NCBI GenBank assembly: GCA_965153355.1
Contig: OZ231126.1
Location: 62,001-126,000 of the forward strand
DNA from: Flaccisagitta enflata
Lineage: Eukaryota
Reading direction: 5' to 3'
DNA length: 64,000 bases
A model generated the notes under the pieces. That model was not told the DNA's origin and searched no databases. It saw only the letters and a program-made list of their open reading frames with translations. Positions 6,524 through 64,000 of the stretch are shown here, piece by piece (position 1 is the first letter of the stretch; each line of letters begins with the position of its first letter). The position numbers and the translations under genes are program-made.

Positions 6524-6615
6524 TACATGGACAAAGACAAAGATTGAAAAACAGACACATAAACAGACTTTAATTTCATTTATTGTTTAATCTTCACCCC
6601 TCCCCCCCTCCTCAG

Positions 6616-6901
6616 CTATGTCGTCCCATCTGTCAAAATGGCGGTCGATGCATCACGGGCGTCTGTCGATGTCCTTTTGGGTGGACCGGAAGTTCCTGCA
6701 CGCGAGATGTCGACGAATGTGCGGCATTTAATCACGGATGCGTCCACGAATGCCGCAACTTTAGAGGAGGATTCACGTGCGTCTGCCCAAAAGGATCCGT
6801 GCTGCAACCGGATGGAAGATCCTGCGAAGTTATTCAGAATAATCCACCAGCTGATGATGATGCGTCGTCGTCGAGTTTACAGCAACAACAGCATCGTCTT
6901 C

Positions 6902-6935
<34 letters not shown>

Positions 6936-7543
6936 GTATCAACAGCATCAACCTTATCAACTTCAGCATCAAAAGCCTCAACAGCATTATGATCCACCAC
7001 AAAGACAGTATCGAGGTCATGCTGTATCATCCAAAGCCATTGACGTAGCATCACCATCATCTTCACCGCGCTTCTCGAGCGTCTTGTCAACATCTTCGAG
7101 GGTTGACGAAACTGTGCAGCCGCTTCATCCCTCACAACTGCGCCTGATTCATAATCACGAAGACAGACGGAAAAATATCATTCATCATCAGGATAAAGAT
7201 GAACAATTTGATGACAAATGGAGAAGTGGATCAAGGAAGAATAATCCAAGAGACGATGGTGATGGTGATGTTGTTGTCGGAGGACATCACTCTCATCATC
7301 AAGGACAGCGGCATCCACAGCATCATCAACAGCATCATCAACGACATCGTCAGCGGCGTCCTTACAGTCGGCTTCAACGGGAACATCACCAACGACCTTT
7401 GCAGGAGCAGCGCCATGGCGATACACTACTTCAACAGGAACATCACCAACGACCTCAGCAGGAGCAGCGTCATCGAGATACTCTTGTTGAATCAGATACT
7501 TGCCGATTTGATTACAACTGCAGACATGGAAAAAGATGCATAG
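6616..7543 (+). CDS. Multi-EGF protein exon (EGF + cbEGF, Q/H/R-rich spacer, start of next EGF)
   Basis: cctcag|CTA; LCRPICQNGGRC...DVDECAAFNHGC; donor TAG|GTTAGT, phase 1. Confidence 0.9.
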
Positions 7544-7943
7544 GTTAGTATGCTAGCATATTCAACTGAATAGATCTAATATAAAAGGAATTGCTATGAA
7601 ATATAGTGGTATGTCTGTTGTCTTCTCTGCTGACATGTGGTACATTTTGGTTCTGTATATAATTTTTTTAATAAGTTGTCTTTTACCCAACTTTTTTGTT
7701 TGTGTCCATATGTGTGTCATCTTATCATCTGCAAACATGCAACGCTCCAAGAGGCTTTATCCATCTGTCTCTTGATCTGTCCATTGGTCCATCTGTTAAC
7801 CATGCTGAAGTTGAAACCTGCATTCCTACCCCTCCCCCCCTCTCCCCCATCCACTGTGACATTATGACCCTGGTTAACTTGTCGTTTGCAAATGGCAAAT
7901 CTTGAATCTTTCTCATCGATTCATCTTTTTTTATATTTCACAG

Positions 7944-8122
7944 ATGGTAAATGTTTGTGTCCTACCGGACGCCGAGGAGATCAATGCCAAGAAGATGAAA
8001 ATGAATGTGAAAAACTGGAAACAAATCCTTGCTCACATACTTGCCATAACACCCAAGGGTCCTTTTATTGTACTTGTCCTCCTAACATGAGACTAGGACC
8101 CAACCAACACCAATGCGTTTGA
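7944..8122 (+). CDS. Multi-EGF protein last coding exon
   Basis: ttcacag|AT; DGKCLCPTG...DENECEKLETNPCSHTCHNTQGSFYCTC...CV stop. The six exons sum to 3549 nt, divisible by 3. Confidence 0.9.
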
Positions 8123-23372: not shown

Positions 23373-23684
23373 AGTGTAAGAAGAGATAGAGAGTGACGGG
23401 GACAGAGTGTTCCGGGCTGTAAGAGGGAAAAAAAATAACGACAAGCCATTTTTGGGACACGAAATTGCTAAAAGAAAAAAAAAAAGGAAAAAAAAGGAAA
23501 AAAAAAAAGGAAAGTAAAAGAAACCTTTTTCTCAATGGTTGAAAATTTTCGATGGTTTTTTTTTTGGGGTCTTTTTTCAAATTCGCATCCTTTCAGCTTT
23601 TTCAGCGAAATTTCTCTCTTTTGGCCTCAGATTTCAAACCAAATTTTGTCTCCTCGCCGAAGTCAAATAGATTTTTTGGATACT

Positions 23685-24145
23685 TACCCTCGGCTTACTC
23701 ATTTGTGTCAATTCACTTACCCCTGTGCTTACTCATTTGTGTCATTTCACTCACCCTGTGCTTACTCATTTGTGTCATTTCACTTGCCTTTGTGCTTGCT
23801 CATTTGTGCCATTTCATTTACCCCTGTGCTTACTCATTTATGTCATTTTACTTACCCCTGTGCTTACTAATTTGTGTCATTTCACCTACCCCTGTGCTTA
23901 CTCATCTATGCCCTTTTACTTACCACTTGGCCTTGTGCCATTTCATATACCCTGTTTTTACTTATTGGTGTCATTTCACTTACCCTATTCTTACTCATTT
24001 GAAAATCATTGGTGCTTACTCATTTGTGTCATGTGGCTTTCATTCGGTGCTTACTTATTTAATGCAATTTACTTACCCCTACTCATTTTTGTCATGTAAA
24101 CCTTAGCCTGTGCTGTGCTTAGTCATTTTTGTCCTATCACTCACC
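23685..24145. repeat. ~34-bp minisatellite
   Basis: TACCCCTGTGCTTACTCATTTGTGTCATTTCACT repeats. Confidence 0.85.
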
Positions 24146-32513: not shown

Positions 32514-35059
<2,546 letters not shown>

Positions 35060-36677
35060 GTGAGGGGAGATTTATATGAACTAATAAACGAACGAAAGAA
35101 CGAATGAACGTTAATTTTCGACGATCATCGTCAAATTAGATATAGATAGTCATAGAAGTTGATTTGATTTGCGTACATAACACGGCTTACGGGCTTAGCT
35201 TAGTAAATAGTCATCGTAGTTTTTACCAAAGGTAGTTGGTCAATCTTCTTCTCAGTTTTCTCCTCTTTCTCCTTCTTAATTTCCCGCCTCTCCATCTCTT
35301 TCTTCTTCTGCCTCTATTTCTCCCCTTTTTCAGCCCTTTCCCTCCCTTTCCTTTCCTTCTCTTTCTTTCTCTTCCTCTTTTCCTGCCTCCTACTCCTCTT
35401 ATCTTATCCTTTCCTGAACCCATTCTACATGGAGAAAACAAGATTAAGTACTCGGCCACTATCAGTAGCAATACTGTGATCAACAGGTCTGAGTAGCATA
35501 GTATCTTTTTGAGTCGCTGGCTTGCGACTGAAAATCCGCTGATCTAGTCGCGAGTATGTTTATAAGAGTATCTTATAGTGTGAAAGTGCGCAGTAGCTGT
35601 AAACAATAATCCCCTTTTCTTCCCTGCCCTCTTTTTTTTTTCATTTTGCTTTCATTATTCATGCTTTACATAATATGTTTGTAAAGTACTGCCATGCCGA
35701 CTCTAAGGTTTGTAGAATCTAACAAGCATTTTATGAATAAATATGTATGGACTTCTAATAACCATGGAGGCTGATGCACTGATTCTGGAATAACGAAATC
35801 TACATCACCAACTAAAACCCAACTAAAACCTAACTAAAACCCAACTAAAACCCAACTAAAACCCAACTAATCCATCAACTAAACTGACTAATCATCAATT
35901 ACTGGTGTATTGTATTGGTGAAAACTAATTTTTTCACTAATTTTTGTAAATCACGTCAATTAAGTATTGCAACTGAAAAAGCTACTACAGAAATGGTTCC
36001 GACTCACAGGTACTAAAAACTCACGCCGATTGCGGCAGTGTAAAGAAACCGCATGATCAAGAATGTTAGTCATAGCTTTAAAGTAAGAAGTACGAAAACA
36101 ATTTTATTTTTAAAGAATAAAGCATCGTGATAGGCAATTTAGTGATTTCTTGATAGAATTTACCTAATGATGAGTAAAATCAGCATGATGATGTTTTTGA
36201 GATACGTAGGATCGAATAAATCATCTGGACGATTTGAAGCATGAGCTTGAACAATGACCATGAAGCATGAGTTTTAAGGTTGGTAGGCAAATAGTACTCC
36301 TCTGATCATGCTTTGAAAAAAAAACATGTTTCTAACTTTAAAAGTTGCTGTAAAATCCATTCTGTGACATGCGAATAAAAAAAAAACAAAAAAAAAAAAA
36401 AAAACAAATGACAAACCAAAAAAAAACAAAAAAAAATAGAGATGGCGTGTACATAGCCATGCACATTTAAGATATCTGTCCTTCCCGAAAAGATTACGAC
36501 AATCTTTATTTAAGTTTTTTTTGTTTTTTTTTCTTTTTTGTTTGTACTTTTCACCCAAATTCCCAAACGAGTTACTAGACGAATTTTCTTGGCACTTCTT
36601 TTCGGTATCTGTAAAAACCACCTTGTTAATCATCACTCATTCTTATCTAATCTATTACATTTCCATAAATCCAACAG

Positions 36678-36879
36678 CCCGACTGGTCTACCAAGCGCGT
36701 GTCAGCGCTGGATCAAATTCGGCAACCCCCCACCGACTTCGTGCACTCCCCCCTCGGACCCCCTGGGGTTGCCCCCCTCACCCCTCGAAAAATGGCTGAC
36801 GAAGGAAGTGTTCTACGACCTTTTCCCCAAAGCAAATCTCGGTCACGGACTCTCCCCCTGCGCGCCCTATTCTTACGAG
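36678..36879 (+). CDS. GH19 chitinase exon 2
   Basis: caacag|C; ...LTKEVFYDLFPKANLGHGLSPCAPYSYE, matching the GH19 N-terminal F..LF....YsYeaF pattern; donor GAG|GTGTGT. Confidence 0.88.
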
Positions 36880-36888
36880 GTGTGTATG

Positions 36889-37210
<322 letters not shown>

Positions 37211-37829: not shown

Positions 37830-37976
37830 GCCTTTGTCATCGCTGCTCGCTACTTCCCTGGATTTGGCGGTCATTACGTCACAAAAGATCCGGCAGGAAA
37901 TCCTTTGCCTCAGACTTACTCCAGACAAGAAATTTGGCGCAGAGATGTGGCGGGATTCTTCGCTCACGCCATTCAA
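37830..37976 (+). CDS. GH19 chitinase exon 3
   Basis: tcacag|GCC; AFVIAARYFPGFG...RRDVAGFFAHAIQ; donor CAA|GTAAGG, phase 0. Confidence 0.9.
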
Positions 37977-38641: not shown

Positions 38642-38738
38642 GAAACTGGAGAGAACAATATCGATCTCTTAAAAACGCTTTCACCCGAAGTGGCTGAAGC
38701 TTGTTTCTATCGGGGAGGTTTCTTTAATTGGTTTGAAG
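38642..38738 (+). CDS. GH19 chitinase exon 4 (catalytic Glu)
   Basis: aaacag|GAA; splicing restores AHAIQETG (GH19 HETG/QETG motif); CFYRGGFFNWFE supplies the second Glu; donor AAG|GTTAGT. Confidence 0.9.
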
Positions 38739-38907: not shown

Positions 38908-38976
<69 letters not shown>

Positions 38977-38981
38977 CTCAG

Positions 38982-39137
38982 GTGGGCCCGTATCCGCTTT
39001 CGTGGTGAACGGGGGTGCCACCCCTGAGGAAGGAGAATGGTGTATACCGGCTGGAAGATATTGTTCCACTGGAAATGTCCCCCATTTACATCCTTGCAAC
39101 GATGAAGAAATCAAACAACCCAACAACATAACCAAAG
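38982..39137 (+). CDS. GH19 chitinase exon 5
   Basis: ttctcag|GT; GGPVSAF...WCIPAGRYC...HPCNDEEIKQPNNITK; donor AAG|GTTAGT, phase 1. Confidence 0.85.
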
Positions 39138-39540
39138 GTTAGTTCCTTACCTTTGACTCAACATAACCAAGGGTAAGCAAAGTCCATCGGTAACGTTTGG
39201 AAAGAAACAAGTGGCTTTCATCTTTTGATTGAACGATTCTTTTCACACGATGGGTCACGGGTTACGGGTTACGGGTTACGGGTTACGGGTTACGGGTTAC
39301 GGGTTTCGGGTTTCGGGTTACGGGTGGGGCTCGTGTGAGAAAACACGCTAGAGCGGGGATAAAAACAAGTATAAAATGGCACTTCTTTGATGTTTAGAAC
39401 TCCTTCTATAGATATCATTTAACAGTTTAAAATCCCGAGCTCCATTTATGAGACAAGAGGGTTCGTCCAATAAATTTGTCCATCTGTCCATCAATTACAC
39501 CATTTCAAACATTAAATGACTTATCGGGAATTGTGCTTTC

Positions 39541-39646
39541 TCTCTGTTTCTCCCATCCAGGCTGTTACTTTTGTCGTGGTGCCATTCAGATATCATACAA
39601 CTACAATTACAGTCTCTCTCTCTCTCTCTGTTTCTCTCTCTCTCTC

Positions 39647-39720
<74 letters not shown>

Positions 39721-40343
39721 CCATCCAGGCTGTTACTTTGGTCGTGGTGCCATTCAGATATCATACAACTACAACTACAGTCTCTCTCTCTCTCCTTCTT
39801 CCATCCAGGCTGTTACTTTGGTCGTGGTGCCATTCAGATATCATACAACTACAACTACAGTCTCTCTCTCTCTCCTTCTTCCATCCAGGCTGTTACTTTG
39901 GACGTGGTGCCATTCAGATATCTTACAACTACAACTACAGTCTCTTTCTCTCTCTTCCTCCTTTCTAGGCTGTTACTTTGGTCGTGGTGCCATTCAGATA
40001 TCATACAAATACAACTACAATCTCTCTCTCTCTCTTCCTCCTTTCCAGGCTGTTACTTTGGTCGTGGTGCCATTCAGATATCATGCAAATACAACTGCAG
40101 TCTCTCTCTCTCTCTCTTCCTCCTTTCCAGGCTGTTACTTTGGTCGTGGTGCCATTCAGATATCATACAAATACAACTACAGTCTCTCTCTCACACTCTT
40201 TCTCCCATCCAGGCTGTTACTTCGGCCGTGGTGCCATTCAGATATCTTACAACTACAACTACAGTCTCTCTCTCACACTTTCTCCTCTCCAGGCTGTTAC
40301 TTCGGACGTGGTGCCATTCAGATATCATACAACTACAACTACG
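39541..40343 (+). repeat. Tandem array (9 copies, ~80 bp) of acceptor plus first ~51 nt of GH19 exon 6
   Basis: ag|GCTGTTACTT starts at 39561, 39729, 39809, 39889, 39969, 40049, 40131, 40213, 40293, separated by (CT)n. Confidence 0.95.
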
Positions 40344-40531
40344 GTCTTTTCGGTCGATGGCTTCAAAGTCGCGGAATCACTCACGAAGGCAAAACCATCG
40401 ATTTGCTCAAAAATCCAAATCTCATCATGACCAAGAAAGATCCTCCTTTGAGCATTTTGGCCTCTTTGTGGTTCTTTATGACTCCTCAACCGCCAAAACC
40501 CGCTATGCATGATATCCTCATTGGAAACTGG
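40293..40531 (+). CDS. GH19 chitinase exon 6
   Basis: GCYFGRGAIQISYNYNYG (GH19 YxGRGxIQLS/TxNYNY signature), LLKNPNLI, ASLWFFMTPQPPKPAMHD; donor TGG|GTGAGT. Start taken at the last of nine acceptor copies. Confidence 0.9.
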
Positions 40532-40595
40532 GTGAGTGGGGGGGGGGGGGAGGGACAATATGAAATCGTGACATTCTTGTTGATTATGTGGTAAA

Positions 40596-41612
<1,017 letters not shown>

Positions 41613-42944: not shown

Positions 42945-43078
42945 GTGAGCCCAGACAAAGATTATGCTGGTTCCGTTTTGGGTCCAACTTCACTCGTTAT
43001 CAACAACGAATGTGGAGGAGAAGATGAAGACTTTGTTGGGGGACCTGGAGAGAGTAGAAGGATTAAGGCTTTCAAATG
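42945..43078 (+). CDS. GH19 chitinase exon 7
   Basis: atacag|GTG; VSPDKDYAGSVLGPTSLVINNECGGEDEDFVGGPGESRRIKAFKW (G.T..IN.EC motif); donor TG|GTTAGC, phase 2. Confidence 0.9.
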
Positions 43079-43099
43079 GTTAGCATGATGATTGAGATA

Positions 43100-43180
<81 letters not shown>

Positions 43181-43337
43181 TGTAGACTTTGTTGGGGGAC
43201 CTGGAGAAAGTAGAAGGATTAAAGCTTTCAAATGGTAAGTATGATGATGGTGGAGATGATGATGATGACTTTGTTGGGGGACCAGGAGAAAATAGAAGGA
43301 TTAAGGCCTTCAAATGGTAAGCATGATGATTATGATA

Positions 43338-43411
<74 letters not shown>

Positions 43412-43502
43412 GACTTCGGCGGAGATGATGATGATGAATTTGTTGGGGGACCAGGAGAAAGCAGAAGAATTAAGGCTTTTAAATGGTAAGCATGATGATT
43501 GA

Positions 43503-43563
<61 letters not shown>

Positions 43564-43727
43564 TGTAGACTTTGTTGGGGGACCTGGAGAAAGTAGAAGG
43601 ATTAAAGCTTTCAAATGGTAAGTATGATGATGGTGGAGATGATGATGATGACTTTGTTGGGGGACCAGGAGAAAGTAGAAGGATTAAGGCCTTCAAATGG
43701 TAAGCATGATGATTATGATGATGATGG

Positions 43728-43779
<52 letters not shown>

Positions 43780-43898
43780 GACTTTGTTGGAGGACCAGGA
43801 TACAGGCTTTTAGATGGTAAGCATGGTGGAGATGATGATGATGACTTTGTTGGGGGACCAGGAGAAAGTAGAAGGATAAAGGCTTTCAAATGATAAGC

Positions 43899-43932
<34 letters not shown>

Positions 43933-43986
43933 CTTTGTTGGGGGACCTGGAGAGAGTAGAAGGATAAGGGCTTTCAAATGGTAAGC

Positions 43987-44044
<58 letters not shown>

Positions 44045-44098
44045 CTTTGTTGGGGGACCAGGAGAAAGTAGAAGGATTAAGGCTTTCAAATGGTAAGC

Positions 44099-44135
<37 letters not shown>

Positions 44136-44189
44136 CTTTGTTGGGGGACCTGGAGAAAGCAGAAGGATTAAAGCTTTCAAATGATAAGC

Positions 44190-44250
<61 letters not shown>

Positions 44251-44380
44251 CTTTGTTGGGGGACCTGGAGAAAGCAGAAGGATTGAAGCTTTCAAATGGT
44301 AAGCATGATGATGATGATGATGACTTTGTTGGGGGACCTGGAGAAAGTAGAAGGATTAAAGCTTTCAAATGGTAAGAGTG
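43029..44380 (+). repeat. Tandem array (13 copies) of last ~50 nt of GH19 exon 7 plus donor
   Basis: GACTTTGTTGGGGGACC...TTCAAATG|GTAAG recurs with variable (GAT)n spacers. Confidence 0.95.
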
Positions 44381-44517: not shown

Positions 44518-44639
44518 GTTTTGCAATTATTTCGGGATTTCGGCGTTCAAAAGTGAAAAGGAAGAAAAAACTTTGACTTGCAAATATTTCAACGTAGATG
44601 ATTTCAGACAATTCAATGTGGATCCTGCGCTACTCGGAG
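44518..44639 (+). CDS. GH19 chitinase exon 8
   Basis: tttccag|G; WFCNYFGI...LTCKYF; donor GAG|GTTTGT phase 1 fits the last exon. Confidence 0.82.
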
Positions 44640-45366: not shown

Positions 45367-45650
45367 GACGTGGTGAATACAAATCATGGGACTACGATTG
45401 GCGTTTCCCCAACGAATGTCGCTGCAACATGAAGACTTATCAAGGAGTCATTTTGGCCTTTGACCCCAAACTTCATCCTAGACTCAAAAACATCAACAAC
45501 CATCACAAAAGATGGTGTGAAAAAGCCCTACAGCAAGTTTATGTTTCCAAAGGAGAGAAATGCGGAGCGGTGCCTATTATGAAACCAGAGGACATGAAGA
45601 AAAGGACGGAAGAGGAAGGAGACGAAGAGGGGGAGGAAGAGGAGGAGTAA
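45367..45650 (+). CDS. GH19 chitinase exon 9 (C-terminal extension, acidic tail)
   Basis: acacag|GA; GRGEYKSWDYDWRFPNECRC...EEEGDEEGEEEEE stop. The nine exons total 3927 nt (1308 aa plus stop). Confidence 0.85.
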
Positions 45651-51645: not shown

Positions 51646-52287
51646 GAGACGCTCGATCAGAAACAACGAAAGCGTGGCCTAAAACAAAAAACAAAAACAA
51701 AAAGCAATAACATAAAACGAAAACAAAACAAAACAAAACAACGGAAAACGATAACGTAAAATATGAACCGATTTGAAATAACGGAATGACATAAAATGAT
51801 TAAAAAAATGAAGAGGAGAGAAAGTGAAAATGAAATGGAAGAATAAAATGGAAGAATAAAAGGAGGAATTAAATAACCTAAAACTACAACTACAACTACA
51901 ACTTGTAGACAAACTTGGTGAGACTGTACACGTGTCTGGACAGTCGCGAGCAACAACTACATTCCCCTTTCTCATTCCCCCCCCCCAAAATAAGAAAACC
52001 CTCTCCAAAACAGATTCTTGCTGAGGAACTAAGAATGAAAGGCTTGAATTAGTGATCCCAGCATAAGTAGGAGGAAGGCAAAATTTGGTGACCCTTTTTA
52101 CAGATGGCGTTTTGCTAAAGAAAGAAAGAAAGAAAGAAAGAAAGGGGAAAAACATTGTGGTAACCACTCAAAAAGGAAGCCTTGTGTTTCTGTCTCTGTC
52201 TCTGTCTCTGTTTCTCTCTCTCTCTCTCTCTCTCGCTCTCTGATCAAGAGGCTCTATTCAAGTCGTTTTGTCACGCGCGACGGGGGC

Positions 52288-53530
52288 GGAAACAAACAGA
52301 CGCTGATTGTGGTAGTGGTCAGGATAGTGGTTGTAGTGGTTGTGACGGTGAAGGCGACGGCGGCGGAAACAAACAGACGCTGATTGTGGTAGTGGTCAGG
52401 ATAGTGGTTGTAGTGGTTGTGACGGTGAAGGCGACGGCGGCGGAAACAAACAGACGCTGATTGTGGTTGTGGTCAGGATAGTGGTTGCAGTGGTTGTGAC
52501 GGTGAAGGCGACGGCGGCGGAAACAAACAGACGCTAATTGTGGTAGTGGTCAGGATAGTGGTTGTAGTGGTTGTGACGGTGAAGGCGACGGCGGCGGAAA
52601 CAAACAGACGCTGATTGTGGTAGTGGTCAGGATAGTGGTTGTAGTGGTTGTGACGGTGAAGGCGACGGCGGCGGAAACAAACAGACGCTGATTGTGGTAG
52701 TGGTCAGGATAGTGGTTGTAGTGGTTGTGACGGTGAAGGCGACGGCGGCGGAAACAAACAGACGCTGATTGTGGTAGTGGTCAGGATAGTGGTTGTAGTG
52801 GTTGTGACGGTGAAGGCGACGGCGGCGGAAACAAACAGACGCTGATTGTGGTAGTGGTCAGGATAGTGGTTGTAGTGGTTGTGACGGTGAAGGCGACGGC
52901 GGCGGAAACAAACAGACGCTGATTGTGGTAGTGGTCAGGATAGTGGTTGTAGTGGTTGTGACGGTGAAGGCGACGGCGGCGGAAACAAACAGACGCTGAT
53001 TGTGGTAGTGGTCAGGATAGTGGTTGTAGTGGTTGTGACGGTGAAGGCGACGGCGGCGGAAACAAACAGACGCTGATTGTGGTAGTGGTCAGGATAGTGG
53101 TTGTAGTGGTTGTGACGGTGAAGGCGACGGCGGCGGAAACAAACAGACGCTGATTGTGGTAGTGGTCAGGATAGTGGTTGTAATGGTTGTGACGGTGAAT
53201 GAGACGGCGGCGGAAACAAGCAGACGCTGATTGTGGTAGTGGTCAGGATAGTGGTTGTAGTGGTTGTGACGGTGAAGGAGACAGCGGCGGAAACAAACAG
53301 ACGCTGATTGTGGTAGTGGTCAGGATAGTGGTTGTAGTGGTTGTGACGGTGAAGGAGACGGCGGCAGAAACAAATTGACGCTGATTGTGGTAGTGGTCAG
53401 GATAGTGGTTGTAGTGGTTGTGACGGTGAAGGAGACAGCGGCGGAAACAAACGTTGATTGTGGGATAGTAGAGGGAAGTGGTGGTGACGGTGACGGCGGC
53501 GGAAACAGAAGGAAGCAAACAGACGCTGAT
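52288..53530. repeat. 77-bp minisatellite, about 16 copies
   Basis: Unit GACGCTGATTGTGGTAGTGG...GGAAACAAACA at 52299, 52376 and onward; near-identical in the middle, decaying at the right end. Confidence 0.95.
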
Positions 53531-57788: not shown

Positions 57789-58310
57789 ATGGCTACATTG
57801 ATTGCACTAGCAATTTCGTTACTGCTTGTATCGGCATTGTTGTTACCATTGCCCTTAGCGTCTGTGTCGGCAACTGTGTCGGCATCAGCATCTGCGTCGA
57901 CAGCGGCATCGGCATCTGTACCGGCGTCGGCATCTGAACCGGCATCGGCGTCGGCGTCGGCATCTGTACCGGCATCGGCGTCGGCGTCGGCATCTGCACC
58001 GGCGTCGGCATCTGTACCGGCGTCGGCATCTGAACCGGCATCGGCGTCGGCGTCGGCATCTGTACCGGCGTCGGCATCTGAACCGGCATCGGCGTCGGCG
58101 TCGGCATCGGCGTCGGCGTCGGCATCTGTACCGGCGTCGGCATCTGTACCGGCGTCGGCATCTGTACCGGCGTCGGCATCTGTACCGGCGTCGGCGTCGT
58201 CTTATCCGGCGCCATTTTGGTATTCAGCTTCCAAATCAACGGCAACTCGACGACAAAATCATCTACGCGTCAAAAGGATGACAGAGTGGAGAGTTTTATC
58301 ATCGGGCACG
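57789..58310 (+). CDS. Secreted Pro/Ala/Ser-rich precursor of unknown family, exon 1
   Basis: aaaATGG context; signal peptide [36 protein letters not shown] repeats; RVKR; donor ACG|GTGAGT, phase 0. Confidence 0.75.
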
Positions 58311-58818
58311 GTGAGTGACAGGGTGGGTGACATGGTGAGTGACATGATGAGTGACATGGTAAGTGACATGGTGAGTGACATGAGGAGTGAAATGGTAAGT
58401 GACATGGTCACTTGGTGAGTGACGTGGTGAACGACATGATGAGTGACACGGTGGGTGACATGGTGACTTGGTGAGTGACATGGTGAGTGACAAGATGAGT
58501 GAGATGATGACTGACACTGTGAGTGACATGGTAAGTGACATGATGAGTGATACGGTGAGTGATATGGTGAGTGACATGAAGACTGACACAGTGACATGGT
58601 GAGTGATATGGTGAGTGACATGATGAGTGACGTGATGAGTGATATGGTGAGTGACATGATGAGTGACATGATGAGTGACATGATGAGAATTATGGTGAGT
58701 GACTTGATGAGGGATGTGGTGAATGACGTGGAGAGTGACATGAAGAGTGATGCGGTGAGTGACATGATGAGTGACACGGTGAGTGACATGATGAGTGACA
58801 CGGTGAGTGACTTGGTGG
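58311..58818 (+). repeat. 12-bp minisatellite GTGAGTGACATG starting exactly at a splice donor
   Basis: About 40 imperfect units read directly. Confidence 0.9.
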
Positions 58819-59329: not shown

Positions 59330-62300
59330 TGATTGTCAGCTTTATGAGCAAAGGACTGTAGTTAGCTGGTCGACTTTCGGATCTGTTGTTGGTGACTATC
59401 ACTGTCTATCTTTTTTCTCTTAGAAGGTGAACGCTTAATTAGACGGTTGTAAGGCGCATAATTGTAAAAGGATTTGTAATAAAATGAGATTACAATGAGA
59501 AAACGGATTTTTTCCAAAAGTAGTAGGTTTGATTGTTTAATCCAAAGAAAATAGCCCAATTCATGAGCCTTATGCGTCCTTGCTTTTACTTTAAAAAAAG
59601 AACGTCTTATTTGTAAGTCTTTCTTCTACGAAGACTAAATGTGAACTAACTAAAGGCAGAGAGTCTCGCTCTGCGCAGTTGTTTATCTCATAATTCATCT
59701 ATACATTCTCGTGACTCCCGGCTTTCTAGCCAATCATGCATGACTATTAAGAAATCATGTATCCAATAATAGCCTAACACGTCTTTAACAAAGGGTTACG
59801 CAAGTCTATGGAAAATTCCCAACTGAGGCAACTTAACACTGGCCCCAAAATTATTGTTTGCAATAATTTTCTAAATAGGTAGAAACCCACGTCAGAGTCG
59901 AAATATGAACACTATTCACAGTAAGCAGTGTTGCGTAGTCATCAGTCACAGCTCGACGTTGTATCTGGTTGTTGTCGTTGAGAATTTTAAACATTGTATC
60001 AATCTCTTGATCCAATGTGCTCGTTTTTGTCAGATGGTACCTCAAGGGGTACAATATGTTGTATCGGGCGCACAATTTCTTTTCCGTCGCAAATCACTTT
60101 CACGGTGCGAACAAGATTGTCACGTCCGACGACAGTTTCCAAAACTTTCGCAAGTGGCCAAGTGTGTCTCTTGGTATTCTCCTTCAGAAGAAGAACGATA
60201 TCTCCTTCCTTGATGTTGGGGCAGCGTGTCTGCCATTTTGTGCGAGACTGAAGCGAGGGCAGGTAGTGTTTCTGCCATTGTTTCCAAAATTGTTCCTTCG
60301 TCCTTTCCAGGTGTTGCAAGCGTCGCGTTGCGTCCAGTGGAACGTAAGGGATGTCAATTTTACCGAGCGGTCTTCCGTTGATCAGTTCGGCTGGTGTGAT
60401 TTGGCGTGTTTCGTCGCCCTTTAAGACAGTCAGGGGGCGAGAATTGATGACTCCTTCAATCTTGGTGAGGACGACTCTCAACTCCACCTCCTTCAACCTT
60501 GCTCCTCCAACAACCTTTCTCAGCGGGGCTTTGATGGAGCGAACCAAGCGTTCCCAAATGGCTCCATGCCAAGGGGCAAGTGGTGTGATGAATTCCCATT
60601 TTATGTGTGGGATTGCTTTCGATGCGGCCACAAACGATGTGCCATTATCGGAGTAGAGAACGGAAGGTGTTCCTCTCCTTGCCCTGAAGCACTCAAAGGC
60701 AAGAAGAAATTCTTTTGTATCCAGTGATTGTGTGAGTTCCAGGTGTACTGCACGTGTGACGCCGCATGTGAACAACAGAATGTATCTTTTTTGCGCGCCA
60801 GTTTTTGTGACATACAATGGACCAGCGTAGTCCATCCCGGTGTGCGTAAACGGTGGTGATGGAGTTGTTCTCCATTCTGCCAGGGGAGCCATTTGCTGCC
60901 CAGCCAATCTTGTGTTTGCTTTTTTGCAGGTGACACATGTTCTCAATTGAGACTTTACTTTGATGATCCAGTAATTTCGGCGCAATTCATTCAAAGTGTG
61001 AGATGCACCTGAGTGCAGGTTTTCATGATGGGTATGGGTGATCAAAAGTTTTGCCAAGTGTGACTCATGATGAAGAATGATCAATTCTGGTTCAGTTTGA
61101 ACTCTTCCTCTCATCATCATAATTCCATCCATCAGGATAGGGTTGAGTCCTTTCAACTTGCTGTCTTTGTGCAAAGCTCCTTGTTGCAAGTTGTGTATGT
61201 CTTTGTTGAAATGCTGTTTCTGATCCATCTTGATCAAATTTTGGAGGGCTACCTCTCTTTCATCTGCAGTGGGGGGACCTTCACTGGCCCCTGTTTTTCG
61301 GTTGATGAAGCGAAAAACATAAACCATGGTGTTCAGCAGCCGGTTGATGTTGCTGAATCTTTCCATCTTCACAATTGGTTCAACGTCATCAGTGACAGTG
61401 GGGATGATATTGACGGCGGTTTTCTTCAATTCACATTGTTCCTTTTTGTGGATTGGCTGATCTGGGTATTCACCCGACTTCAGAAACTCAGGGCCATGAA
61501 GCCAGAGTTCATTTTGTTTCTCAGACAGAGGCCAAATACCTCTTGAAGGTATGTCAGCTGGGTTTTGGGTCCCAGGTACCCACTTCCAATGATCATCACA
61601 GGTTGTGTGATTTTGTTTTGTGTTGTCTTGGATCAACTTGACCCTGTTTCCAACGAAGACTTTGTACTGTGATGCTTCAGTGTGAATCCAGTTCAAAACG
61701 ATGGTGGAATCGGTCCAGAAAGTGGTGGGCAGTGGGCCAAGGTATTTGGTTATGTATGTGTGCATGTTAGCGGCAAGGACCGCGCCTTGCAGTTCCAATC
61801 TTGGAATGGTGGTCTCTTTGATGCTTTTCACTCTTGTTTTGGCCATCATGAGGTGTACATTGACACTGGCCCCATTTTCATCTGGGCTTGTACCATAAGC
61901 TGCAGCTGCAAAACTTTCTTCACTTGCATCACAGAAGATGTCCACAGCTTTGATTTTTCCCCAAAACCTTTGGACAGTTGGGCTGATTTTGCTGGCTTCC
62001 TGCCACAAGTTGACATGTTTCATGACGTCATTTGGGATTTTGTCATCCCATCCAAGTTGCAATTGCCACAATGACTGCATGAGTATTTTTCCACGGCACG
62101 TCAACGGCGCCTTTAACCCCAATGGGTCGTAGATGCTTGCCAGCATAGCAAGAACATCTCTCTTTGTTTGACATTGTCTGTCAGTGACGGCTTTTGGAGC
62201 CAAAGTGTCATCACTGGTGTTCCATTCAATACCAAGGACTGAGGTATGGACCTTGTTTTCCAACAGTGAGGGATCCATTGCATCCAGAACGGCTTGGCAG

Positions 62301-64000
62301 TTGCTGTTGATTTTCTGTACTTTCATGCACATTCCATCGAAGAATTCAATCAATTCCTCCAGTAATTGAATGGCAACTTGTATCTCCCAGGTTCCAGTGA
62401 TGGTGTCATCAATGTAAAGCTGGTCTCTGACTGCTTTGACTGCCAGAAGGAACTTTCCCATCCTTTCCATCCTGTTTGCATGTTCAAGGATGGTTTCACC
62501 GGACAAGTAAGGTGATGATGCTTCTCCAAAGAGTAGTGTGCATTGTCTCATCAATTTTTCAAATGCAAAGAAATGATGCAAATCTTTCTGTTGATCAGGT
62601 ATGGTGATTCTAAAGAACATCTTGCTGATATCTGCAATCACAGCAATTGGGTTGTTTCTGAATTGTAACAGCAATCCAATAACCTCAGGGAGCAGGTTTG
62701 GGCCTGCATATTGGCATTTGTTTAAAGACAGGCCATTCTTGTCTTCTTTTGATGCATTCATCACATTTCTGATTGCGGTTGTAGATTGACCTTCTGTTAT
62801 GACAGAATGCCGAGGGAGGAAGTGTTTCTGTGTGTTTGGATCATCTTTCTCAGAAGTGACCTCTTCAATGATGCCTTGTCTTTCTTGATCATCAAAGACG
62901 GCTTTTACCTGCTCTTTCAGAGTAGGGTTTTTGTCCAATTTTTGCATCTGCTTTTGATGCAGGATTTTGGCGATCTTTTCATTATCACCCAGTTGTTTGA
63001 CAGTTTCCTTGTATGGAATTGTGGCTTGGTATTGTTTCTTGACATCATCATATATGATGTTCTGTTGAACTTCTTTCCTGAAGTCATTTTCTTCAACTTC
63101 ATGAACCATCGGTTCCTTGTGTGTATGTGTGCCTAAGCATTCAGCCTCATAGAACTGCTTGAGCTCTGATTCAATCCCTTTGAAGGGTCTTGTGGTGACC
63201 TTTTGGCAAGAGGTCCTTTTGCCCTCAAAGTTTGGGCAGGCTCCACACAAAATCCAACCGAAGATTGTTTGGACTCCTACAGGGGCTGTGATCTTGCCCT
63301 TTGCACGGGCTCCTGTTTTTATGGCTTCAGCATAGTCTGCGCCAATCAGTATTTCCACTTGCTCTTCTTCTCTTGGGAAGCAGTCGGCGAAGCGGATGTT
63401 TTTCAAGTGAGAAAATTCTTTTGTTGGGTCAAATGGAACGGCATCCATTTCAATACACAGTGGTCCATCCCGGACCAAAGCGTCCATGGTGAAATTGTTC
63501 CCTCTTGTGGTTTTCAAAGTGACCTTTGCCACAGAAAACTCTTTTGGGGGTTCAAGTGTTGCTGAGAAAGCCACAGCAACCGAAAATGTTTTCTTTCCAA
63601 CTATTGGAAGGTTCAATTCATCAACAACCTGTTGAGTGATCCAAGTGTTTTGTGACCCATCATCAAGCATCGCTCGGATGGGTCTTTTGGCTGTGTCTCC
63701 AACAGCAGTCGCTTTGAACGACTTCAGAATAGAGCTTCCATTGAAACCCTTCGTTGAGGCGTTGTTTGCCGTAGTTTTTGGACCGTCCTCACCTCGAGGG
63801 GTCTCTGTTTGTTTGGAAATTGGTTTTGGCTTCTCCTCATGGTGCAAAACTGTTGGGTGATCAGTGCTCTGGCACTTCCTGCAAGTTACTGATTCTTCAC
63901 ATTTTTCACCTTGATGACCCTTCCGGGCGCATTTGAAGCACAATCTGTTCTTCATCAGAAACTCAAATCTTTCTTTCTTCTGTTTCTTACCTAAGAAACT
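59330..64000 (-). mobile_element. BEL/Pao LTR retrotransposon with probable 3' LTR (59838 down to about 59330-59385)
   Basis: On the minus strand, a PPT-like TTTTGGGGCCAG is followed by TGTTAAG at 59838. The distal LTR end is uncertain because the 5' LTR is outside the window. Confidence 0.85.
59999..64000 (-). CDS. BEL/Pao gag-pol polyprotein (5' truncated by window)
   Basis: Zn knuckles (CFKC..H...C), protease LDDGS, RT ADISKMF/YIDD, RNase H FCDAS/IPRLEL/WTDS, integrase HHCC plus DYAGP/SDNG/WER; order PR-RT-RH-IN; frame stays open to the window edge. Confidence 0.97.
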   Translation of the reverse strand, partial: SFLGKKQKKERFEFLMKNRLCFKCARKGHQGEKCEESVTCRKCQSTDHPTVLHHEEKPKPISKQTETPRGEDGPKTTANNASTKGFNGSSILKSFKATAVGDTAKRPIRAMLDDGSQNTWITQQVVDELNLPIVGKKTFSVAVAFSATLEPPKEFSVAKVTLKTTRGNNFTMDALVRDGPLCIEMDAVPFDPTKEFSHLKNIRFADCFPREEEQVEILIGADYAEAIKTGARAKGKITAPVGVQTIFGWILCGACPNFEGKRTSCQKVTTRPFKGIESELKQFYEAECLGTHTHKEPMVHEVEENDFRKEVQQNIIYDDVKKQYQATIPYKETVKQLGDNEKIAKILHQKQMQKLDKNPTLKEQVKAVFDDQERQGIIEEVTSEKDDPNTQKHFLPRHSVITEGQSTTAIRNVMNASKEDKNGLSLNKCQYAGPNLLPEVIGLLLQFRNNPIAVIADISKMFFRITIPDQQKDLHHFFAFEKLMRQCTLLFGEASSPYLSGETILEHANRMERMGKFLLAVKAVRDQLYIDDTITGTWEIQVAIQLLEELIEFFDGMCMKVQKINSNCQAVLDAMDPSLLENKVHTSVLGIEWNTSDDTLAPKAVTDRQCQTKRDVLAMLASIYDPLGLKAPLTCRGKILMQSLWQLQLGWDDKIPNDVMKHVNLWQEASKISPTVQRFWGKIKAVDIFCDASEESFAAAAYGTSPDENGASVNVHLMMAKTRVKSIKETTIPRLELQGAVLAANMHTYITKYLGPLPTTFWTDSTIVLNWIHTEASQYKVFVGNRVKLIQDNTKQNHTTCDDHWKWVPGTQNPADIPSRGIWPLSEKQNELWLHGPEFLKSGEYPDQPIHKKEQCELKKTAVNIIPTVTDDVEPIVKMERFSNINRLLNTMVYVFRFINRKTGASEGPPTADEREVALQNLIKMDQKQHFNKDIHNLQQGALHKDSKLKGLNPILMDGIMMMRGRVQTEPELIILHHESHLAKLLITHTHHENLHSGASHTLNELRRNYWIIKVKSQLRTCVTCKKANTRLAGQQMAPLAEWRTTPSPPFTHTGMDYAGPLYVTKTGAQKRYILLFTCGVTRAVHLELTQSLDTKEFLLAFECFRARRGTPSVLYSDNGTSFVAASKAIPHIKWEFITPLAPWHGAIWERLVRSIKAPLRKVVGGARLKEVELRVVLTKIEGVINSRPLTVLKGDETRQITPAELINGRPLGKIDIPYVPLDATRRLQHLERTKEQFWKQWQKHYLPSLQSRTKWQTRCPNIKEGDIVLLLKENTKRHTWPLAKVLETVVGRDNLVRTVKVICDGKEIVRPIQHIVPLEVPSDKNEHIGSRD

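Follow-up and report, generated by a model that had tools for sequence, protein, structure and literature searches.

Minisatellites that copy a splice junction are a rare and already described kind of repeat. In lancelets, such "mirages" are minisatellite-like duplications of an intron/exon boundary together with its splice signal, with units of 10-160 bp (PMC3087553). The globin gene BflGb6 carries a repeat of the 3' intron end together with the 5' portion of exon 2, present as 6 and 3 units in two haplotypes with a unit identity of 81-100%, and BflGb9 has a duplicated 3' exon boundary; reverse-transcription polymerase chain reaction (RT-PCR) suggested that regular splicing of the lancelet globins was undisturbed (Ebner et al. 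2010, PMC3087553). The same authors cite Canestro et al. 2002 for a mirage in Adh3 (PMC3087553), and a further study states that the mirages in Adh, TnC and PGBD5 generated no aberrant mRNAs (Pavelitz et al. 2013, PMC3902484). In intron 7 (IVS7) of human F7, a 37-bp variable number tandem repeat (VNTR) provides 5-9 identical donors (Borensztajn et al. 2006, PMC1557585). That study states that the most upstream donor alone is used, the others being functional, and that site choice, tested by mutagenesis, was shifted only by consensus-perfect pseudo-sites (PMC1557585). Here, we describe two arrays that add a case to this kind. In a 64-kb window (the whole stretch of DNA analysed, 64,000 nucleotides, positions 62,001 to 126,000 of the forward strand of contig OZ231126.1), a glycoside hydrolase family 19 (GH19) chitinase gene carries nine tandem copies of the 3' splice site at the intron 5/exon 6 junction (array 1) and thirteen copies of the 5' splice site of exon 7 (array 2).

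39532..40343, plus strand: array 1, nine units, each of ~29 nt of CT-rich intron end with YAG followed by the first 51 nt of exon 6, with the authentic junction in the last copy.
39613..39720, plus strand: (TC)54 microsatellite between copies 1 and 2 of array 1.
43030..44377, plus strand: array 2, thirteen units, each of the last 49 nt of exon 7 followed by GTAAGC and (GAT)n; the first copy is the authentic junction.

Array 1 is probably a mirage-type junction minisatellite, a by-product without a role of its own, and the exon-proximal sites would make the working mRNA. Direct reading of the sequence identified nine head-to-tail copies at 39541-40343 (c1 to c9, in order), each a CT-rich tract and YAG followed by 51 nt coding for GCYFGRGAIQISYNYNY. 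The core GCTGTTACTT occurs at 39561, 39729, 39809, 39889, 39969, 40049, 40131, 40213 and 40293, with no further occurrence in the window. All nine copies retain the pyrimidine tract (82-100% C/T at -20..-4) and YAG (CAG in 8, TAG in copy 5). Tandem Repeats Finder reported positions 39699-40347 with a period of 80, 8.0 copies and 92% matches; the ninth copy, c1, lies beyond (TC)54, which is an expansion of the unit's pyrimidine tract. As a tandem repeat, array 1 is far beyond chance as a sequence feature. These observations bear out the initial annotation, which had described nine tandem acceptors, each with a pyrimidine tract, YAG and a copy of the GH19 signature motif.

The acceptors of c1 to c8 lie 732, 564, 484, 404, 324, 244, 162 and 80 nt from the last acceptor at 40293. 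Four of them (c1, c2, c5 and c7) are in frame and would add 244, 188, 108 and 54 aa, respectively, whereas c3, c4, c6 and c8 shift the frame and meet their first stops at 40510, 39966, 40510 and 40428; the four in-frame distances, the lengths that they would add and the frame shift at the other four had all been given correctly before. The array had also been placed within a stop-free open reading frame (ORF) at 39476..40594. The stretch is indeed stop-free, but the frame opens at 39452 (stop to stop, 39452-40594), so that 39476 lies within it, and exon 6 itself ends at 40531, with the donor GTGAGT at 40532, short of the ORF end.

The gene that contains these junctions was mapped by tblastn with two cnidarian proteins (from Hydra and Rhopilema), and the exon boundaries were then set by eye.

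36678..36879, plus strand: GH19 exon 2, from tblastn of the Hydra and Rhopilema proteins, splice sites and phase.
37830..37976, plus strand: GH19 exon 3, from tblastn, splice sites and phase.
38642..38738, plus strand: GH19 exon 4, with the QETGEN motif and its conserved Glu, from tblastn, splice sites and phase.
38982..39137, plus strand: GH19 exon 5, (TC)33 preceding the acceptor, donor AAAG/GTTAGT, from tblastn and splice sites.
40293..40531, plus strand: GH19 exon 6, authentic, 239 nt, matching PF00182 positions 107-172 and solved GH19 chitinases.
42945..43078, plus strand: GH19 exon 7, 134 nt, authentic donor AAATG/GTTAGC at 43079, from tblastn and homologue alignment.
44518..44639, plus strand: GH19 exon 8, from homologue alignment and splice sites.
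45367..45650, plus strand: GH19 exon 9, with the stop TAA at 45648-45650, from homologue alignment and splice sites.

With the acceptor at 40293 and the donor at 43079, the model of exons 2-9 has an open frame, all phases fit and 7/7 introns are GT-AG. Exon 5 ends (39137) after codon base 1, and the exon starting at 40293 gives the remaining two bases. The model product is colinear with 7 homologues, among them those of Hydra vulgaris (LOC100214594) and C. elegans, over ~425 aa including a C-terminal Cys-rich extension, at 53-60% identity, and the alignment is gap-free at both array junctions. It keeps 145 of the 160 columns that are invariant among the 7 homologues; in a leave-one-out comparison, same-column retention was 83% for C. 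elegans and 94-99% for the other six homologues, of which three are named cnidarians. Both the QETGEN Glu and the NWFEGG Glu, presumed catalytic acid and base by comparison with plant enzymes, are present in the model and in 7/7 homologues. The gene thus looks intact. As only the acceptor at 40293 yields an open protein colinear with the GH19 homologues, a normal enzyme would need this acceptor. The open, gap-free join of 39137 to 40293 is in line with the earlier proposal that the ninth acceptor would have to be chosen past eight equally good-looking ones.

Family assignment is anchored in exon 6, which alone scored 63.8 bits against PF00182 (Glyco_hydro_19; cut-off 25.5 bits), and the array 1 ORF scored 108.5 bits; none of the remaining seven exons matched this profile singly (0/7), and their assignment rests on homologue alignment. 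Exon 6 matches 28 distinct PDB sequences at E<=0.001, including barley 2baa (residues 111-176) and papaya 3cql. Against a set of 5.8 billion proteins it gave 109 matches (141-2000 aa), and every named protein among them comes from a cnidarian (Hydra, Clytia, Rhopilema) or a nematode; identity peaks at 85% (P0003), and the three named cnidarians reach 74-81%. Lancelets are absent from the named proteins among these 109 matches, and no protein of the same species occurs among the 109. The array 1 ORF was covered to at most 27% in each of its 104 matches (209-665 aa), which likewise include no protein of the same species, and no junction could be read from the database proteins. None of 110 database proteins with the motif GRGxIQxS repeats it at short spacing, a comparison in which spliced models cannot reveal intronic arrays; P0001 alone among them has the motif twice, as two whole domains. 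In P0003 (166 aa), whose translation enters both flanking introns, the BLASTP alignment begins at PGCYFGRG with nothing upstream. An "LLR" near the offset expected for an upstream junction copy in this protein was judged too weak to count.

Between 35000 and 36677 there are seven ATG-to-GT candidates for a signal-peptide exon in the right phase, none of them hydrophobic enough. Further upstream lies one additional candidate exon.

32514..35059, plus strand: possible exon 1, a long low-complexity (poly-Q/N) ORF with a transmembrane-like helix at its end, donor CAG/GTGAGG at 35060.

The donor at 35060 is in phase 2, the phase required by exon 2. This ORF may belong to the GH19 gene, in which case the chitinase might have an extended N-terminal tail and be anchored in the membrane instead of being secreted by a signal peptide, in which it would differ from its GH19 relatives.

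Array 2, absent from the initial annotation and found in the follow-up analysis, mirrors array 1 and lies at the exon that follows exon 6 in this gene. Its donors lie at 43079, 43235, 43317, 43486, 43618, 43700, 43817, 43893, 43981, 44093, 44184, 44299 and 44372; 11/13 units have the end of exon 7 followed by GT, AT replaces it in the other two (43893 and 44184), and the copy at 43817 carries an internal deletion. Unit spacing is 73-193 nt, with a higher-order periodicity (period 383, 2.6 copies). The authentic donor, at the exon-side edge, is GTTAGC, and the other ten GT donors are GTAAGC, GTAAGT or GTAAGA. Beyond the first donor, the reading frame runs into a TGA at 43086-43088. Because this TGA enters with every downstream donor, a normal mRNA would come from the first donor only.

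Compared with the systems described above, array 1 shows four sequence-level features of a mirage: a unit of minisatellite size, a boundary with its signal in each unit, an authentic edge copy and a turnover pattern. Like BflGb6, it repeats a 3' intron end and a 5' exon part; array 2, like BflGb9, has the 3' boundary of an exon as its repeat. The units overlap in size (10-160 bp in lancelets; 80 bp in array 1 and 73-193 bp in array 2), unit identities are similar (81-100% in lancelets, ~92% in array 1), and inner units are homogenised and edge units divergent in both. Unlike the reported lancelet mirages, both kinds of array occur here in one gene on consecutive exons, the copy numbers are 9 and 13 against 3-6 in BflGb6, and each unit has a microsatellite as its intronic half. 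Variation in length and undisturbed splicing are features of the lancelet mirages, whereas the arrays here are known from one sequence only. Within the limited literature covered, the reports found using "mirage" in this way concern lancelets.

Array 2 also resembles the F7 IVS7 repeat, in that the first element spans the exon/intron boundary and the authentic donor is followed by pseudo-donors. In F7, the sites are identical and spaced at a fixed 37 bp in 5-9 copies, whereas array 2 has 13 copies at a variable 73-193 nt, its authentic GTTAGC differs from the pseudo-donors, and 2 copies have lost GT. Site choice was tested by mutagenesis in F7; here, the TGA at 43086-43088 and the intact gene point to use of the first donor. 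Both arrays further share a splice site in every unit with human tandem arrays which, in work by Zhuo et al. in PNAS in 2007, reportedly give rise to alternatively spliced introns.

The anatomy of the units suggests how the arrays may have arisen. The founding unit of array 1 would be an 80-bp segment in which the final ~29 nt of intron 5 (CT tract plus CAG) are joined to the opening 51 nt of exon 6, amplified to nine copies. A tandem duplication across a 3' boundary leaves only the last copy joined to the exon and places the extra copies in the intron, and one across a 5' boundary leaves only the first copy joined, with the extra copies again intronic. Each array has a microsatellite, (TC)n or (GAT)n, as the intronic half of its unit, whose edge on the exonic side falls at a short microsatellite look-alike, GTCTTTTC after ...NYNY and GAAGATGAAG before ...DFVGG. 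The 51 nt of array 1 are followed by GTCTTT in the exon and, in the upstream copies, by GTCTCT (seven copies) or ATCTCT (c5); the 12 nt that precede the array 2 units, ATGATGATGATG, agree in 8/12 positions with the exon counterpart, GAGAAGATGAAG. Because a look-alike stands at the exonic edge of both units, we propose an origin seeded by misalignment, in which slippage or unequal exchange between the microsatellite and the exonic look-alike likely produced the first duplication, and local unequal exchange would account for later growth.

In the proposed splicing scheme, the last acceptor (40293) would pair with the exon 6 donor to give a 239-nt exon, the acceptor of exon 7 would pair with the first donor (43079) to give a 134-nt exon, and the extra copies would be spliced out along with the intron. 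Pairing of the nearest sites across the intron would instead make intron 5 423 nt long, with its end at c1, and intron 7 146 nt long, with its start at 44372, and both products would be aberrant. Exon definition is an established model of site pairing, and the exons of this gene (97-284 nt) and its introns (243-2413 nt) suit it. Each normal transcript needs the ninth of nine acceptors as well as the first of thirteen donors, so exon definition predicts the required choice and intron definition does not. Accounting for the array as a decoy field resolved by exon definition, one of two readings offered earlier, would thus agree with the reports on the same architecture in lancelet genes and human F7; nothing in the sequence analysis speaks for the other, namely isoforms or dosage control linked to nonsense-mediated decay (NMD).

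A scan for the branch-point motif YTNAY did not separate used from unused acceptors. The motif occurs upstream of c1 (-38), c5 (-44), c8 (-20) and c9 (-18 and -44) and not upstream of c2, c3, c4, c6 or c7; among real acceptors, that of exon 9 has none, and for that of exon 5 the sole occurrence is at -8. The motif was therefore rejected as a discriminator, the real exon 9 acceptor being without it.

The divergence among the copies of array 1 bears on whether they are under constraint. The peptide GCYFGRGAIQISYNYNY is exact in 5/9 copies (c2, c3, c4, c8 and c9) and altered in four: Gly>Cys in c1, Asn>Lys in c5 and c7, and Tyr>Cys, Asn>Lys and Tyr>Cys in c6. Half of the eight upstream copies thus carry nonsynonymous changes at residues invariant among the homologues, within the all but invariant ISYNYNY/GRG stretch, and c4 and c8, which shift the frame, are no less clean than the in-frame copies. 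Third codon positions make up 5/8 of the variable exonic sites, which is not significant (P=0.088). Among c3-c9, 7/51 columns vary in the exonic half of the unit against 11/29 in the intronic half, a comparison confounded by the faster mutation of the CT tract through slippage. Selection on the copies was rejected on these two grounds. The few substitutions had been taken as kept coding, a view not supported in the light of the damaged copies, the equally clean out-of-frame copies and the codon-position test; the conserved coding reflects, as we read the sequence, the youth of the copies (~92% alike) and not constraint.

Array 1 contains one stop triplet in any frame over 803 nt, compared with ~23 expected from base composition, and the other two frames are likewise open (330 aa, and 150+153 aa). 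Because the founding 80-nt unit has no stop triplet and was then copied, the open frame is a by-product, and we rejected it as a functional signal.

The pattern of differences is that of minisatellite turnover, with inner units homogenised and edge units divergent. Pairwise differences per 80 positions are as low as 2 (c3-c4) or 3 (c5-c7, c6-c7 and c2-c3), and c1 and c9, at the edges, show 8-15/80 differences from every other copy. Variants are shared between neighbours (AAA in c5-c7; CACAC and TTC in c8-c9; the CCTTCTTCC tract in c3-c4), which argues for stepwise duplication. Additionally, synonymous variants are shared in a mosaic among c4, c8 and c9, which would fit exchange with the real exon or with alleles of it.

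The surroundings of the gene are rich in repeats. Tandem repeats make up 28.8% of the window (16% with periods of 1-9 and 17% with periods of 10-500, the two classes overlapping); arrays with a period of at least 20 and at least 3 copies cover 10.4%, or 8.6% without the two arrays of this gene. Random placement at 8.6% coverage would put 1.2 of the 14 junctions within an array, and the probability of two or more is 0.34. The overlap of two arrays with junctions is therefore not unexpected, and no special mechanism is needed for it. The donor consensus GTRAGY is found in the unit consensus of 4/46 arrays of the window (period at least 10, at least 3 copies) compared with 1.36 expected (P about 0.05). 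One of these four, at 58310-58817 on the plus strand, consists of ~43 copies of the 12-nt unit GGTGAGTGACAT, a 5' splice-site consensus, and begins where an ORF from ~57789 ends (...GGGCACG/GTGAGT); this ORF has a signal-peptide-like start and Ser/Ala/Pro-rich repeats. The GGTGAGTGACAT array is a candidate for a further junction-derived array. On the minus strand, a 34-nt minisatellite of 9.7 copies at 23682-24001 has the donor-like TGA/GTAAGC and GGG/GTAAGT in its unit, and no exon adjoining it was recognised. A 77-nt unit repeated 15.3 times with 97% matches lies at 52277-53452.

Several points weigh against a neutral by-product. That the last acceptor and the first donor are used is something we infer from the intact gene and by analogy with other species. 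The placement estimate is crude and disregards that exons usually exclude repeats, and the exons that both arrays adjoin are consecutive ones of a single gene. In the array 1 unit, the exonic half is less variable and, as given above, third positions prevail among its variable sites short of significance; this contrast could hint at some constraint, or at conversion of the copies by the real exon. Being GTAAG(C/T/A), the ten extra GT donors of array 2 are nearer to the general animal donor consensus than the authentic GTTAGC. Leaky use of these extra donors is plausible by analogy with F7, because consensus-perfect pseudo-sites shifted splicing there, whereas the natural F7 pseudo-sites equalled the real one.

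These points lead to the possibility that the extra sites are functional decoys, diverting splicing to frame-shifted, NMD-targeted or insertion-bearing mRNAs so that copy number or splicing factors tune chitinase output, which we regard as unlikely. The eight upstream acceptors have tracts of 82-100% pyrimidine compared with 53-94% at the other used acceptors of the gene, four of them shift the frame and give stops upstream of later junctions, the TGA at 43086 is included with each downstream donor of array 2, the authentic donor looks weaker than the extra ones, and the exonic half of the array 1 unit is somewhat better kept than the intronic half. However, half of the upstream copies are decaying at the protein level, the pattern in array 1 fits neutral turnover, the junction overlap lies within chance for so repeat-rich a locus, and the same architecture in lancelet and human genes was reported as harmless to splicing. 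A broader version, in which the arrays are not inert, junctions seed minisatellites and rows of decoys act through their copy number as a fast-mutating dial on productive splicing, is likewise improbable; the hints toward it are the 4/46 arrays with a donor consensus, the ~43 copies of GGTGAGTGACAT at the end of an ORF, the stronger extra donors and the lack of lancelets among the named GH19 matches.

A dying gene would also permit such arrays: if the GH19 gene were a recent or incipient pseudogene, they could ruin its splicing and grow unselected. Two junction arrays in one gene, the missing signal-peptide exon at 35000-36677 and the missing protein of the same species among matches of 141-2000 aa would fit. 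This explanation is very unlikely, as 8/8 mapped exons have an open frame, their phases fit and the introns are GT-AG, the gene keeps 145/160 invariant columns, a level between that of the six other homologues and the nematode, and a plausible in-phase upstream exon with a membrane anchor is present.

That the arrays or their copy numbers stem from mis-assembled repeats or merged haplotypes is highly unlikely, even though the locus is 28.8% tandem repeat and, in lancelet, the assembly of one mirage in the draft genome was noted to be aberrant (Ebner et al., PMC3087553). Neither the nested shared substitutions among the copies of array 1 nor the higher-order structure of array 2 is expected from random read errors, and what may be wrong in the assembly is the exact copy number. 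Scarcely credible for this locus is the mirage model of Ebner et al. for a nascent exon or intron, in which an internal 51-nt copy would be an emerging in-frame mini-exon repeating GCYFGRGAIQISYNYNY: 51 is a multiple of three and GT follows 7/8 upstream copies (ACA/GTCTCT), but GTCTCT has C at +5, where 7/7 real donors of the gene have G, the next acceptor is just ~29 nt away, and a doubled catalytic-cleft segment would probably ruin the fold.

If array 1 is a mirage-type by-product, as we favor, the locus provides a clean case, ready for annotation, of splice-junction-copying minisatellites, a class that is little known, and a natural substrate for the choice by the spliceosome of one site among identical neighbours. 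The practical risk is that gene predictors and read mappers are misled by nine acceptors and thirteen donors, and the copy number of the arrays is likely to vary between individuals. If the host is not a lancelet, mirages would extend past the group that the cited reports concern. If, on the other hand, the arrays act as a dial, 3' and 5' arrays in one gene would offer a natural experiment on exon-proximal choice in an animal other than a chordate, and these would be the first mirages found outside lancelets.

Further simple repeats lie in and around the gene. The (TC)54 of intron 5 (39613-39720) and an (AG)51 of intron 6 (41013-41114) flank exon 6 and would be perfectly complementary as RNA, so that pairing across exon 6 is conceivable. 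Intron 2 contains a (GA) run of ~160 units at 36892-37210, (TC)33 at 38908-38973 forms the acceptor tract of exon 5, and a heptamer repeat, (GGGTTAC) x 10.6, is found on the plus strand of intron 5 at 39252-39325, upstream of array 1.

Elsewhere in the window, Rfam at gathering thresholds gave 0 matches, so that no RNA gene accounts for the region. Exons coding for calcium-binding EGF and cEGF domains at 2-1462 and 6574-8119 on the plus strand probably represent one or two extracellular-matrix-type genes upstream of the chitinase. On the minus strand, 60002-64000 holds a BEL/Pao-type retrotransposon ORF (Peptidase_A17, reverse transcriptase, integrase and DUF5641) that continues past the window end and is 98% identical to one database cluster of 40 members.

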